A stretch of DNA of 4,956 nucleotides, from IMG/VR virus record IMGVR_UViG_2541047126_000008, one strand, 5' to 3'. Below the pieces are notes generated by a model, which saw nothing but the letters and a program-made list of their open reading frames with translations, was not told the DNA's origin and ran no database searches. Below, piece after piece: positions 1-4,956 of this stretch (positions are counted from its first letter, which is position 1; each line of letters opens with the position of its first letter). The position numbers and the translations under genes were made by a program. This stretch comes from a virus. Its lineage: Duplodnaviria; Heunggongvirae; Uroviricota; Caudoviricetes.

Positions 1-572
1 GTCACCTGGTCAGCAAATCCGTGTGCCAGACATTCGGCACCGGACATCCAGGTTTCATCCGCCAGCATGGCGGCAATTTCATCGGTGGTTTTTCCGGTTT
101 TCTGCGCATAGGCTGGCAACAGTACCGATTCGACTTTATCCAGCAAATCGGCATAACTGCGCATATCCTCAGCATCCCCGCCACTGAATCCCCATGGCTT
201 ATGGATCATCATGAAGGCATTTTCCGGCATAATGACCGTATCACCGGCCATCGCAATCACAGATGCCATCGAGGCGGCAACGCCATCCACATACACGGTA
301 ATGGTCGCCCCCTGATTTTTCAGGGCATTAAAAATGGCGATGCCTTCAAAGACATCGCCACCCGGTGAATTGATATTGAGATTAATGTGGGTGATATCGC
401 CCAGTGCATTCAGATCACTGATAAACTGCTTCGCTGTAACACCCCAGAAACCAATCTCGTCATAAATATAAATATCCGCGTCACTCTGGTGACCAGCCTG
501 CATCCTGAACCAGGAATTATTCTTCGGACTGGTCGTCGGTGTGCTGCGGCTCCTGTCGTTTCGTTGCGGCAC
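1..572 (-). CDS. ClpP-like (S14-type) prohead/head maturation protease, N-terminal part; 3' end lies beyond the left edge of the window
   Basis: Minus-strand frame open from about 572 down to position 3 with no stop (not in the ORF track because it has no stop inside the window). Hand translation from the ATG at 503..501: MQAGHQSDADIYIYDEIGFWGVTAKQFISDLNALGDITHINLNINSPGGDVFEGIAIFNALKNQGATITVYVDGVAASMASVIAMAGD...MIHKPW... The INSPGG, GxAASMAS (Ser codon 270-272) and MIHKP (His codon 201-203) motifs match the ClpP serine protease signature. Start is ambiguous: ATG at 503..501 has only a weak Shine-Dalgarno, whereas an in-frame GTG at 572..570 is preceded by a perfect AAGGAGG (revcomp of 578-584) with a 5-nt spacer; I report the longer version. 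Confidence 0.8.
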   Translation of the reverse strand, partial: MPQRNDRSRSTPTTSPKNNSWFRMQAGHQSDADIYIYDEIGFWGVTAKQFISDLNALGDITHINLNINSPGGDVFEGIAIFNALKNQGATITVYVDGVAASMASVIAMAGDTVIMPENAFMMIHKPWGFSGGDAEDMRSYADLLDKVESVLLPAYAQKTGKTTDEIAAMLADETWMSGAECLAHGFADQV

Positions 573-2026
573 TGCTGCCTCCTTTATCACTGGCCGGATC
601 GGTATCAAATACCAGATCCAGCTTGCGGTTTTCATCAATTTCGGCCTTGCGCCGACGTTTGACATCATCCGGATTACGACCACCTGCACGTACCCAGTCT
701 GATTCTGTCGCTGCTCCACCACGAATCTGAATTTTCCAGGCCTCAGCCTCCTTAACAGGGTCAATCCACGGCATCACCGGTCCGGAATACACCGCGGTAT
801 ACAGTGAAGAACGGTCAAGATCGCGGGGTAGCCTGATAACACCGGATGCCACAGCCTGTTTCAGCCAGGCACGATACATCGGGCGGGTGACGGCACCAAT
901 AAACCAGTCCTGCAGGATCAGGTAGCCATCAGTGGATTCAACCAGCTCCTGACGCTGGGCGCTGTAAGTGCCGTTATAGTTGCGCGCTGTACTGGAAAAA
1001 ATTCAGACGACTGCCCGCCGCCACGGCACGCAACTGACCATTACGAAAAGTTTCAAGGTTAGGATTGGGGCGATCCGACTTCACCATTCCGATTTCTTCG
1101 CCGGGTTTCAGATCGTCGTAAATAATGCCTGGCTGAATGGTAAGCTCGCGTTCCTTATCCTTGCTGCCATTACCATCCGGTTCATAGCTCTGCCCATCGC
1201 CTTTCCGGATGTACATCCCCAGAGCAGCGGCGATCCTTGCTGCAGTCAGCTCAGAATCCTCATACTCTTTCAGGGCACTGAGGCGGATCAGCACACCGGA
1301 CAACAAAGACGTCCCGCGCATCTGGTGCAGACGGCGAACAAATTTAAGATGCAGCATTCGCTCTGCATCCACTTCTTTGGTTTCCATCTGCCGTCCGGAT
1401 ACGGGACGGCTTTTATACACCAGATATTTTTCGGGACGCCCCCAGTCATCAACAAACACGCCCTGATTCAGCCTGTTGCTCTCATCACTGGTCATGGGAA
1501 TAAAGTCTGGCTCGAGCGCCTCCAGCCAGAAATGAACACCGGCAGAAGGCGTCAGGCTGTTTATGCGCCCGGAAACCATCTGGGCAAACACCTCACCATC
1601 GCGCAGCCAGGTACGCAGCATCAGACGTTCCAGCATCGGACGGGTAAACTGCCCGGTGACTTCCGGACTGACAGACCATTCACTCCATCGGGTGCGTATC
1701 TCCGCTGCCAGATCACGGGCAATGGCCCCATTGCGTAATACCGGATGTGGCTCGACAATAATCCCGTTTTTCCCCACCACCCGTTCTTCCAGCTTGTCAA
1801 ATACACCAATAACCAGATCGTGGTTGTTATCAAGGTAACGGGCCTGCTCACGTAACGACACGGCCCCGTACTGGCTTAACTGGTCGGCAGTTCGGTTTTC
1901 CCGCCGGGCTTTGTGTGTCCGCGTCGTTTTTACGGCCTCATAAGCCTGGATCACCGCACGGGAACGCAGCCTTGCCGCTTTCCATCCTGGTGAAAAAACG
2001 CCAATCACATCATCAAGAATTGCCAT
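517..2026 (-). pseudogene. Phage portal protein, lambda-type (PF05136-like), split into two frames by an apparent +1 frameshift in an A6/T6 homopolymer at 996-1001
   Basis: N-terminal segment: ATG at 2026..2024 (MAILDDVIGVFSPGWKAARLRSRAVIQAYEA..., a typical lambda-family portal N-terminus) runs in one frame to a TAA at 976..974 (...SRLNFFQYSAQL*), about 350 codons. The track ORF 974..2098 begins at an upstream in-frame Met, but 2026 is the likely start because it overlaps the gpW stop. C-terminal segment: a second frame is open from 1002 down to a TAA at 519..517 (...IFSSTARNYNGTYSAQRQELVESTDGY...QEPQHTDDQSEE*), about 160 codons. The two frames overlap only across 977-1002, which contains the A6 run; removing one A would give a single portal of about 500 aa. 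Confidence 0.8.
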
Positions 2027-2238
2027 CAGAACCTCGCCAGCCGGTACCCGGGATGCCCCCGTCGTCGTGTAATCAGAGCCGCAAGGCGGCGCTCCCACTC
2101 CTGCCGTCCCTGCCGGATCTCAGATAAGTTTTCCATGGTCATCTGCTGACCATTAAAGGTGACGGATTTTCCGTCCAGCACCGCCATTTCAGCTTCCGTA
2201 TAACGCTGAATCATGGCTTCGATATCATTCTGGTTCAT
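2026..2238 (-). CDS. Head-tail joining protein, gpW-like
   Basis: About 70 aa (MNQNDIEAMIQRYTEAEMAVLDGKSVTFNGQQMTMENLSEIRQGRQEWERRLAALITRRRGHPGYRLARF). Size, position between terminase and portal, and the C-terminal RRRG-P-GY motif resemble lambda gpW (which ends ...QRRRGPAGFYV, from memory). The track starts it at 2244, but GGAGG sits directly against that ATG; the second ATG at 2238..2236 has a 6-nt spacer and overlaps the terminase TGA as ATGA. Its stop TGA (2028..2026) overlaps the portal ATG as ATGA. Confidence 0.75.
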   Translation of the reverse strand: MNQNDIEAMIQRYTEAEMAVLDGKSVTFNGQQMTMENLSEIRQGRQEWERRLAALITRRRGHPGYRLARF

Positions 2239-4337
2239 AACCATCCTCCGGAAGTCAGCCAGGGGTTAACATCGTCAGTTACTGTTTTCTTCCGTTTTTG
2301 TTTTTTAACAGGCGTGGATACCGGTTCCGGTGAGGGTGACGGTTCGGTACTGTCCGGGACACTCTCCAGCCAGGTTTCCCGGCTCGCCCACCCCGGTGCA
2401 TCCGGCCAGCGGATCTTTTCGTATCCATGCAGAATGACCAGAGCCTCGGCATACACCATCAGGTCAAAAGCTTCGTTGGCACCGCGACCCGGCTTACTCC
2501 ATTTCCCGTCACTACTCCGCTCTTCATACGTCAGTTCGTCGTAAAACCAGCTCCCCAGCCAGTCAGGGAAATGCACATAGCCGGGACCTGGAGAGTCACG
2601 CCATAACGCGTTATTCACCCGGTCTTTCAGTGCATCCGTCTGAAGAAGCCAGAGCGGCACATCACCTGCGGCCTGCGCCCGTCGGCCCGTTCGTCCGGTG
2701 TTATCAGGGAATGTACGGGTGATCAGTTTTGCGCGCCGGATGCTGTCGCCCTTAAACAGGTAAATACGTTTACCAAGGCCATCACGACGGCAACGACGCC
2801 AGAATTTATAGGCATTATCAGTGACCCCGTCTTCACCGCCGGAGTCCACCGCCATTGCCATCAGTCGCATTTGTTGAGAAGGATCGGAGGCCAGCGGCCA
2901 GCTTTTATGAAAAACATCCGTCAGCAGGACATCCCAGTCTTCCGGATAGCTGGCCGGATCAATTCGCTGGCTCTCACCGTCGCTGTCACCGCGCAATGAC
3001 TGCGTGATGTTGTAACGATCAATAATCCAGCGTTCGCCACGGCTGCCATAGCCCGTTACCTGAACCACAAAACGGCGATGACGTCCCGCCTGCACATCCA
3101 CTGTCGCCACAAGGAAATTAACGCCATCCGGCACACTGCTGGAAGGAACTGGCTCTGCCCGCTGCTCAAGCAGTTCACTTTTTCGTTGCTCCATGCTGGC
3201 GCGGGGAAGATAAGGTAATCCCCAGTCGGTATTGATAACCGTCTTGAGTGTTTCTTCACTTCCGGTTGTCTCGTATTCCTGTTCTGCAGTAAGCAGTTTG
3301 TAAACGAGTTGCGAGAGTGTCTGGTAAGCAGCTGCCGGACCCTCCATCCAGAATGACGCAATACGTGAGCGTCGGGGATCACCATAACGACTACCATCCG
3401 CATTGATGGATTCACCATCCCGCAACCAGACCCCACGTCCGTTCAGCTCACGTTTTTGTTCAGGCATAATCCGTCCTGAACAGGAAGGACACTGAATATA
3501 AGCCGCCTCACTTGCCAGCACGGGATCGGCAATATCACGGAAACCAGCAACCACATCGCCGCAGGGCTGAAAATACTCACCACAGTGTGGACAGGGCCAG
3601 TACCAGCGACGGCGATCGCCACGGTTATAGAGCGACAGTATCCCCGTGGTTGGTGGAGCCTCATGCGGTGAAGTCCGTCGCCATTTCACATCCTTCACAT
3701 CCCTGCCGGGGGAACTCTCCACCAGCGTCATACCACTGGACATAAATGTGGTGGTACGTTTTGAGGCAAGAGAGAAGGCATCCCCCTCGCCATCAATATC
3801 TTCCGGAAAACGGTCATAATCCGTCAGCGCCACGCATTTATAATCTGATGAGGACATGATATTGACTGACGGCCAGCCGATTTTCAGGTAGTTGCCAGCA
3901 AGGAATGTTCTGTCATAAACGTTGTTGTCATTTTTGTTCGGACTCAGGCGACTGACCACTTCCGGGCTGACGCGAAACGTTCTGGCGAGTCGTTTTTTGG
4001 AGTGTTCGCGGGCTTTTTCCTCCGTCATCTGAATGATCAGCATATCCGCAGGATCGCAAATCACGTTGTAAATCACCCAGCCGTCAATCAGGCCGATAGT
4101 CTTGCCGGTTCGTGCCGGGCCAACAAATATCACTGCGTCGTATTCACGCGAGGCCAGGCAGTTCATCGGCTCAATAACATACGGTGCCACCAGCGGATCC
4201 CACGGGACTGAGTTCCCGGCCCCCATGGGCACCCGCATATACTGAGCAACGGCATCAGCAACCCGCATTCGTCTCGGTGCGCGAAGGATATAACCTGAAT
4301 CGGTTCGTGCTGCCTTTGCGGTTTCCTGATTCAGCAT
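2235..4337 (-). CDS. Terminase large subunit, lambda gpA family
   Basis: 700-aa ORF. Walker A P-loop VGPARTGKT near the N-terminus; CPHCGEY ... CPSCSG paired-cysteine motif (lambda gpA has ACPHCGEEQ, from memory); FLVATVDVQ segment resembling the gpA nuclease-domain region (lambda YLTAGIDSQ, from memory). AGGAGGAG Shine-Dalgarno (revcomp of 4340-4347) upstream of the ATG at 4337..4335; that ATG overlaps the upstream frame's TAA as TAATG. Confidence 0.93.
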   Translation of the reverse strand: MLNQETAKAARTDSGYILRAPRRMRVADAVAQYMRVPMGAGNSVPWDPLVAPYVIEPMNCLASREYDAVIFVGPARTGKTIGLIDGWVIYNVICDPADMLIIQMTEEKAREHSKKRLARTFRVSPEVVSRLSPNKNDNNVYDRTFLAGNYLKIGWPSVNIMSSSDYKCVALTDYDRFPEDIDGEGDAFSLASKRTTTFMSSGMTLVESSPGRDVKDVKWRRTSPHEAPPTTGILSLYNRGDRRRWYWPCPHCGEYFQPCGDVVAGFRDIADPVLASEAAYIQCPSCSGRIMPEQKRELNGRGVWLRDGESINADGSRYGDPRRSRIASFWMEGPAAAYQTLSQLVYKLLTAEQEYETTGSEETLKTVINTDWGLPYLPRASMEQRKSELLEQRAEPVPSSSVPDGVNFLVATVDVQAGRHRRFVVQVTGYGSRGERWIIDRYNITQSLRGDSDGESQRIDPASYPEDWDVLLTDVFHKSWPLASDPSQQMRLMAMAVDSGGEDGVTDNAYKFWRRCRRDGLGKRIYLFKGDSIRRAKLITRTFPDNTGRTGRRAQAAGDVPLWLLQTDALKDRVNNALWRDSPGPGYVHFPDWLGSWFYDELTYEERSSDGKWSKPGRGANEAFDLMVYAEALVILHGYEKIRWPDAPGWASRETWLESVPDSTEPSPSPEPVSTPVKKQKRKKTVTDDVNPWLTSGGWL

Positions 4338-4540
4338 TACTCCTCCTGCTGTAATTCCTCCTCATCATCCGCACCTGCTTCGGTCACCCGCAGGGCTATC
4401 TGATCGCGCAGATCATCAATAATGGACTGAACACGGCTCACAGCGGCAGGCTGCAGACCACAGTCACGTTCCAGAATATCCGGTAATGTCTCCAGCACCT
4501 GCACGACCGCTTTTGCCCAGATGGCAAACTCCCGTCTGAC
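4337..4540 (-). pseudogene. Terminase small subunit, 3' fragment (about 67 C-terminal codons); 5' part apparently displaced by the IS insertion
   Basis: Minus-strand frame open through 4540..4340 with no stop and no ATG, ending in a TAA at 4339..4337 that overlaps the terL ATG. Hand translation: VRREFAIWAKAVVQVLETLPDILERDCGLQPAAVSRVQSIIDDLRDQIALRVTEAGADDEEELQQEE*. The position immediately upstream of terL and the acidic C-terminal tail fit a Nu1-like small terminase. The frame runs on into IS sequence and hits a stop at 4573..4571. Family assignment is by position and composition only. Confidence 0.5.
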
Positions 4541-4582
4541 TGAACCGCCCCGGGTTTCCTGGAGAGTGTTTTATCTGTGAAC
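4541..4582. repeat. Terminal inverted repeat region of the IS3-family element (exact IR length not determinable without the other end)
   Basis: Plus-strand sequence tgaaccgccccgggtttcctggagagtgttttatctgtgaac lies between the IS boundary and the OrfB stop; the partner IR is outside the window, so the pairing cannot be verified here. Confidence 0.5.
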
Positions 4583-4956
4583 TCAGGCTGCCAGATCATC
4601 GTTTCCGATGGAAGCATAATAAGCTTTTTCTGCTTCTGCCGGAGGAGTATGGCCCAGCCTTCCCAGCAATCGTCGATTGTTATACCAGTCCACCCACGTT
4701 AGTGTGGCCAGTTCCACTTCTGCACGGTTTTTCCAGCTCTTACGGTGTATTACCTCCGCTTTGTAAAGACCATTGATGCTCTCAGCCATCGCGTTGTCAT
4801 ACGAGTCGCCTGTACTCCCTGTTGATGCCAGTAATCCGGCTTCTTTTAGTCGCTCCGTATAGGCCAGTGACACATACTGAGAGCCTTTATCGCTGTGATG
4901 GATGGTGCCAGACGGACGACGGGCCCACAACGCCTGCTCCAGCGCATCCAGCACGA
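4583..4956 (-). CDS. IS3-family transposase OrfB (DDE integrase core domain), C-terminal portion; N-terminus outside the window
   Basis: Track ORF 4583..4954 (frame stays open to the window edge). Translation ...HHSDKGSQYVSLAYTERLKEAGLLASTGSTGDSYDNAMAESINGLYKAEVIHRKSWKNRAEVELATLTWVDWYNNRRLL... carries the second Asp and the Glu of the DD(35)E triad (DSYDNAMAES) with a conserved Lys 7 residues after the Glu, plus the WVDWYNNRR tail typical of IS3-family OrfB. Confidence 0.9.
   Translation of the reverse strand, partial: VLDALEQALWARRPSGTIHHSDKGSQYVSLAYTERLKEAGLLASTGSTGDSYDNAMAESINGLYKAEVIHRKSWKNRAEVELATLTWVDWYNNRRLLGRLGHTPPAEAEKAYYASIGNDDLAA

Follow-up and report, generated by a model that had tools for sequence, protein, structure and literature searches.

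Can the packaging genes in the 4,956-nucleotide stretch of IMG/VR record IMGVR_UViG_2541047126_000008 (hereafter the window, meaning this whole stretch) still serve a phage, and if the element is defective, which lesions grounded it and in what order did they arise? The original prediction, made from the letters alone, described two independent disabling hits, a small terminase gene (terS) split by an insertion sequence (IS) and a frameshifted portal gene, in a recently inactivated, non-inducible prophage. Based on our comparisons, the window is very probably the late-operon packaging and head block of Sp3, a lambdoid prophage of Escherichia coli O157:H7 at ybhC-bioA. We assign a probability of about 0.9 to this explanation as a whole, which comprises the Sp3 block, its portal frameshift, a later IS629 insertion in terS, and a joint with a second prophage that is present in the source genome only.

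As observed in the alignments, window positions 325-4540 are 100% identical to Sp3 of strain Sakai (NC_002695 891124-929709, ECs_0824 to ECs_0829), and all 54 differences lie within 9-324. The gene order and gene sizes of Sakai Sp3 are as in the window. Additionally, its portal carries the same +1 frameshift, with the upstream fragment annotated as ECs_0826 and the downstream fragment as the pseudogene ECs_0827. The near-identical sequence, the gene order, and the portal frameshift of the lineage together place the window in the Sp3 (CP-933K-type) group. In contrast, terS of Sakai Sp3 (ECs_0824) is intact and has no IS, while window 1-324 carries the protease allele of another prophage. In the Sakai record, Sp3 lies between ybhC and ybhB/bioA and carries lpxR, pphA, nleB2-1, nleC, nleH1-1, and nleD. 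The Sp3-type prophages of strains 7784, CV261, Z1835, and Z1836 share the IS629 insertion, at the same nucleotide and with the same flanks, and are identical to the window at 377-4956. Unlike the window, these four retain the Sp3 protease allele, which gives 55 substitutions in 1-324. Among isolated phages, mEp460 and its relatives (Ayreon, phi458, PhiR47_1, and vB_EcoS-569R4) show ~98% DNA identity to window 1-4540 in the same gene order. Unlike the window, phages of this type have one portal open reading frame (ORF) of 502 residues and an uninterrupted terS, that is, an intact module.

As reported by Asadulghani et al. (2009), the portal, integrase, and recombination genes of Sp3 are disrupted, and repressor and replication functions are absent (PMC2669165). 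Moreover, Sakai Sp3 showed no circularization, replication, or packaging after mitomycin C treatment (PMC2669165). Together with the identity to Sakai Sp3, these data bear out the prediction of a defective, non-inducible prophage. The wording "recently inactivated" is justified only insofar as the genes have kept ~98% identity to their counterparts in live phages. Sp3 is immobile mainly through its other defects, and it fails earlier, at excision and replication. Within the "defective prophage pool" of O157:H7, it is a textbook example. Its defectiveness, portal pseudogene, and immobility are already published; the finding is correct but ordinary and has little significance beyond correct annotation.

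The portal lesion involves the following features (window coordinates here and below):
517 to 2026, minus strand: whole portal gene, frameshifted (Phage_portal_2; phrog_537 and phrog_21).
974 to 2026, minus strand: 5' part of the portal gene, 343 native and 7 out-of-frame codons, ending at TAA 976-974.
996 to 1001: run of six A (T6 on the coding strand) with the +1 insertion; in-frame relatives have five.
517 to 995, minus strand: 3' part of the portal gene, 159 codons, in a different frame from the 5' part.

Compared with phage mEp460 and with the O145 prophage described below, the extra A in 996-1001 is the sole indel of the whole module. On the coding strand, CTG AAT TTT TCC AGT becomes CTG AAT TTT TTC CAG, and translation stops after 350 of the 502 codons, the last 7 residues being foreign. 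When one A is removed, a 502-residue ORF is restored, and 500 of its 502 residues are identical to the mEp460 portal. The 350-residue product matches Pfam Phage_portal_2 (PF05136) at positions 3-324 of 354 (E=8e-74); the final 30 positions and the C-terminal third of the protein are lost. The 3' part matches phrog_537 (E=3e-65) and phrog_21 (E=3e-40), both described as "portal protein". Instead of the one unbroken ORF of ~500 residues expected of a lambda-family portal (PF05136), the window has these two fragments, and the gene, as judged from its sequence, is a pseudogene of such a portal. The Prokaryotic Genome Annotation Pipeline (PGAP) likewise gives the portal as two coding sequences in strains 7784 and TR01.

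To describe the distribution of the frameshift, we searched complete E. coli genomes for exact matches to an 80-bp query centred on the A run. The frameshift allele matched at 100% in 287 complete genomes, all of O157 type among the matches listed, and the in-frame allele, one base shorter, was present in ~1565 other genomes. A one-base length change in a six-base homopolymer is a typical error site for 454, Ion Torrent, and Nanopore reads, and the original prediction had itself named a sequencing error, combined with an intact terS copy, as one outcome that would overturn it. However, 287 complete genomes, each sequenced independently, share the identical 80-bp allele, that of Sakai with its annotated pseudogene among them, and the split annotation in 7784 and TR01 points the same way. 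We therefore rejected a sequencing or assembly error that hides a really intact portal as extremely improbable, and the frameshift serves as a stable lineage marker. Collectively, the data confirm the predicted portal frameshift and indicate that an old +1 insertion in a T5 run shortened the portal to 350 of 502 residues and became fixed in the O157:H7 lineage.

The frameshift might be overcome during expression, if ribosomes slipped by +1 on UUU-U, or RNA polymerase slipped at T6, often enough to supply the full-length portal (12 copies per head) and keep the module functional. To restore the frame, tRNA-Phe would have to re-pair by +1, from UUU to UUU within A-AUU-UUU-UCC. On the mRNA strand, the T run follows a small hairpin, and the 159 downstream codons are undamaged. 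However, the youth of the lineage accounts for the intact downstream ORF, and the codon that follows in frame is a common UUC, beside which lies neither a stop nor a rare codon. Moreover, mEp460, other isolated phages, and ~1565 genomes have a plain in-frame gene, and a T6 run is shorter than those known to give efficient transcriptional slippage. Finally, the DNA of Sakai Sp3 was not packaged (PMC2669165). We consider a portal rescued in this way very unlikely. A programmed frameshift as a feature of the family was rejected, as the live relatives are in frame and the shifted allele is confined to the 287 genomes.

Two side observations concern the portal region. In public annotation, the 5' fragment starts at a GTG at 2098, inside the adaptor gene, and is 374 residues long (974-2098, 1125 bp; 4974-6098 in the strain 7784 record, L001, and 18529-19653 in the Sakai record, L007). 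It is labelled "phage portal protein" or "hypothetical protein" (ECs_0826) and bears no pseudogene mark; by homology, the true start of the portal is predicted to be the ATG at 2026. Additionally, the small hairpin of G and C pairs at 1022-1006 on the minus strand lies directly before the T6 run and forms a terminator-like match inside the portal gene, in which the extra T extends the T tract.

The second lesion, in terS, involves three features:
4541 to 4956, minus strand: 3' end of IS629/IS1203 (IS3 family), its last 416 bp, running past the window edge.
4583 to 4954, minus strand: C-terminal 123 codons of the orfB transposase (Pfam rve, rve_3, and rve_2).
4337 to 4540, minus strand: 3' remnant of terS (DUF1441, phrog_141), the last 67 of 163 codons and the stop.

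Over its 416 bp, the IS part of the window shows 100% identity to the IS1203/IS629 copy that O157:H7 strain 7784 has at the same site; with IS629 of Sakai, the identity is 100% across 387 bp. The terminal inverted repeat TGAACCGCCCCGGG... starts at 4541, and this repeat and the DDE (rve) orfB, both present in the window part, identify the element as IS629/IS1203. At the identical locus of strain 7784, the complete IS of 1310 bp is flanked on both sides by a 3-bp GAC target duplication, and the first 97 terS codons lie on its far side. There, the IS is annotated with a programmed frameshift (orfA/orfB, -1) under the PGAP name "IS3-like element IS1203 family transposase". In the window, the bases at 4538-4540 (GAC) are the target-site copy adjoining the IS; the published target duplication of IS629 is 3-4 bp (PMC3271280). 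The uninterrupted target, in which ...CCCGTCTGAC runs directly into ATCACTGG..., is present in strain TR01 and in phage mEp460.

The terS remnant matches Pfam DUF1441 at positions 94-146 of 147 (E=1.6e-12) and phrog_141, "terminase small subunit", at positions 110-176 of 183. Intact relatives have 163-172 residues, and the window lacks the N-terminal half of the full-length protein of ~163 residues. PGAP annotates both terS halves of strain 7784 as pseudogenes. These findings agree with the predicted splitting of terS by an IS, with the IS629 end at 4541 and the distal terS half alone inside the window. The exact IS/terS junction occurs in only four complete O157 genomes (7784, CV261, Z1835, and Z1836). 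A simple IS629 transposition with a 3-bp GAC duplication split terS after codon 97 in a small sublineage. IS629 in terS marks this small O157 sublineage and could be used in IS-based typing.

The two halves of the split terS are also matched by phrog_6039 (55 residues) and phrog_5710 (residues 1-98), at window 4337-4504 and at 7337-7828 of locus L004. These entries of "unknown function" appear to be database families made from pseudogene fragments. Both families, like nu1 of Sakai Sp4, are in keeping with frequent IS-split terS fragments in databases.

The order of the two lesions can be read from their distribution. In Sakai and TR01, the frameshift is present and terS is uninterrupted. Because the frameshift occurs in 287 genomes and the IS junction in only four of these, the IS landed in an already dead prophage; as the later hit, it therefore did not contribute to inactivation. 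The two hits are independent, as predicted, but they differ greatly in age and the IS had no part in disabling the phage. The truncated portal would be unable to form a functional dodecamer, and terS without its N-terminal DNA-binding half would be unable to direct cos recognition. With both lesions, the element would thus be unable to package itself and might persist, grounded, as a vehicle for its effector genes nleB2-1, nleC, nleH1-1, and nleD.

In addition to the two lesions, the left end of the window is hybrid, as seen in two features:
3 to 572, minus strand: ClpP-like prohead protease/major capsid fusion, its first 190 codons (CLP_protease), continuing off the window.
325 to 376: recombination breakpoint tract, 52 bp, the same in Sp3 and the ompW prophage.

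When the whole window was compared with complete E. coli genomes, the best match was 98.9%, and the shortfall is due to a clean allele switch at 325-376 with no scattered divergence. All 55 differences from strain 7784 lie within 9-324, and the identity is 100% from 377 on. At the variable sites, all 55 in 9-324 match a second prophage and not Sp3, while all from 377 match Sp3. Window 1-324 is identical to the protease allele of this second prophage, which strain 7784 also carries. In strain TR01, the second prophage lies at ompW and has an effector gene of the OspG/NleH type; it is presumably the counterpart of Sakai Sp9/CP-933P. The breakpoint tract comprises 52 bp that are the same in both parents, whereas the flanks are just ~83-85% identical. 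The hybrid joint was absent from 5,426 complete E. coli genomes searched with a 211-bp query and from metagenome and IMG/VR contigs searched with an exact pattern of 100 bp.

We propose that a crossover or conversion inside the 52-bp tract, confined to the source genome, joined Sp3 to the allele of the ompW prophage. In strain 7784, the two prophages are oppositely oriented at 0.93 and 2.82 Mb, so that a crossover would invert the stretch of chromosome that separates them. Inversions and duplications bounded by prophages, and hybrid boundaries formed by homologous recombination, are common and ongoing in O157:H7 (PMC8743559), which argues for a biological recombinant, as does the protease reading frame, which is kept across the joint. 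However, it is nearly an even bet that 1-324 is an assembly chimera over the repeat shared by the two prophages. The joint falls within a tract that is the same in both parents and whose flanks diverge, strain 7784 has both parental alleles as well as the IS junction, and the joint is absent from all three sequence collections; a private recombinant would likewise be missing from other genomes. If real, the joint marks a prophage-mediated rearrangement in the source strain. Both lesions stand whether the joint is a recombination product or a chimera, but the prophage sequence beyond the left edge may not be Sp3 in the source genome.

Beyond its own genes, a defective module might draw on other prophages. 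Although an IS disrupts its nu1, Sakai Sp4 is packaged all the same, with the Sp14 terminase as the probable agent (PMC2669165). Similar to the element in the window, Sp4 is a lambdoid O157 prophage with a small terminase split by an IS. In contrast, its terS is of the lambda Nu1 type, and its IS is ISEc8 of the IS66 family (Sakai locus L010, 32387-35081). We therefore rejected the idea that Sp4 repeats the IS629 insertion at the corresponding site of terS. Furthermore, unlike Sp3, Sp4 has an intact portal, and it was excised, replicated, and packaged with the help of another prophage. As a side observation, IS disruption of the small terminase recurs in prophages of enterohaemorrhagic E. coli (EHEC), with different IS elements and terS families.

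Prophages that share a genome can complement each other, so that in EHEC damage to packaging genes is not by itself proof of immobility. The module might thus be mobilized or used through the O157 prophage pool, either complemented by an intact co-resident terS and portal or donating its intact terL and adaptor by recombination. The packaging of Sp4 sets a precedent for this, strain 7784 has a second complete DUF1441-terL-portal-protease module, and the window itself shows exchange between the two modules at 325-376. On the other hand, that joint could be an assembly artefact, and the co-resident paralogues in strain 7784 are distant from the module (portal 78%, terL 69%, and terS 55% identical), which makes cross-specific cos recognition and assembly doubtful. 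Moreover, Sakai Sp3 has no functional integrase or replication genes and was neither circularized nor packaged. Use of the module through the pool is therefore improbable in our judgement, and an immobile Sp3 block is preferred.

Several points nevertheless weigh against assigning the window to a grounded Sp3. The loss of portal function is read from the truncation, and the T6 run could permit rare +1 slippage. The placement at the Sp3 site follows from sequence identity, the flanks lying beyond the window, and the immobility data come from Sakai Sp3 and not from the source strain. Complementation by paralogues in co-resident prophages is possible. Finally, 1-324 is not Sp3, and the source prophage may be a hybrid with the head and tail genes of a more complete prophage.

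The terS site is also occupied outside O157. In 20 complete genomes of O145:H28 type, an IS3-family element lies at the exact terS base (4540/4541 in the window; 8539/8540 in the O145 locus, L002) in the same orientation, and this IS is 95.9% identical to IS629 over 1310 bp. The Sp3-like prophage remnant of O145:H28 (e.g. RM9872) is 97.7% identical over the whole window. In contrast to the window, its portal is intact, with five A. On its far side, the O145 IS lacks a target duplication and borders a DUF551 gene and the integrase, so the adjoining early region must have been deleted.

Two insertions are very unlikely to have met at one base by chance. The shared site reflects either a preferred target or a shared history later obscured by IS homogenization. 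IS629 is reported to have no sequence-specific target (PMC3271280), which makes the shared site a small oddity. IS variants 4% apart occupy the site in unrelated EHEC lineages (4 O157:H7 and 20 O145:H28 genomes), and on this basis 4540/4541 could be a true hot spot for IS629-type elements or the site of a repeatedly selected insertion, a reading that we regard as unlikely. If it were true, recurrent knock-out of the small terminase by an IS would be a directed route by which EHEC ground prophages that carry effectors. Previously unrecorded are only this coincident O145 site and the hybrid joint, the reality of which is uncertain.

The remaining structural genes of the block comprise the protease listed above and two others:
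2235 to 4337, minus strand: terL, gpA-type large terminase, 700 residues, intact (GpA_ATPase and GpA_nuclease).
2026 to 2238, minus strand: head-tail adaptor at the lambda W position, 70 residues, intact (phrog_118).

In terL, PF05876 GpA_ATPase is matched at 2-247 of 247 (242 bits; cutoff 25.6) and PF20454 GpA_nuclease at 1-294 of 294 (287 bits; cutoff 22.5), and the translation contains a Walker A-like GPARTGKT. Both domains of a gpA-type large terminase are thus present at full length, as the prediction of an intact terL with ATPase and nuclease motifs had it, and 695 of the 700 residues are identical to terL of the isolated phage mEp460. The terL ATG overlaps the terS stop (TAATG), and AGGAGG lies upstream.

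The adaptor is identical to mEp460 gp03 at 70 of 70 residues and matches phrog_118, "head-tail adaptor" (E=8.5e-37). It had been described as an intact gpW; the ORF is intact, but membership in the lambda gpW family of Pfam is unsupported, since Pfam gives a sub-threshold DUF6148 match only. In the protease, Pfam CLP_protease is matched at residues 30-190 (E=3.7e-37), with the GTG start at 572 as annotated in strain 7784, where PGAP supplies the name ClpP-protease/capsid fusion. The frame stays open across the hybrid joint. The protease was likewise predicted to be intact, and its 190 codons are open, but these are all that can be judged of ~660-675 codons, and they form a hybrid of two alleles. 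The intact state of terL and the adaptor is explained most simply by the short time since inactivation and not by any demonstrated use.

Every coding sequence in the window lies on the minus strand, in the order IS629 end, terS remnant, terL, adaptor, portal, and protease/capsid fusion, and neighbours overlap at start and stop codons (TAATG, ATGA). Each of the gene calls is backed by Pfam and PHROG assignments. In the window, an Rfam scan gave no family above threshold, and a consensus scan gave no sigma-70-like promoters (3.5 expected). On the minus strand, the same scan detected no terminator-like site from the orfB stop of the IS (4583) to the start of terL (4337). Transcription that reads through into terL, starting either in the IS or at a late promoter further upstream, appears possible. 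The window as a whole contains 18 terminator-like hairpins (4.3 expected), 12 of which are on the plus strand, antisense to all genes.

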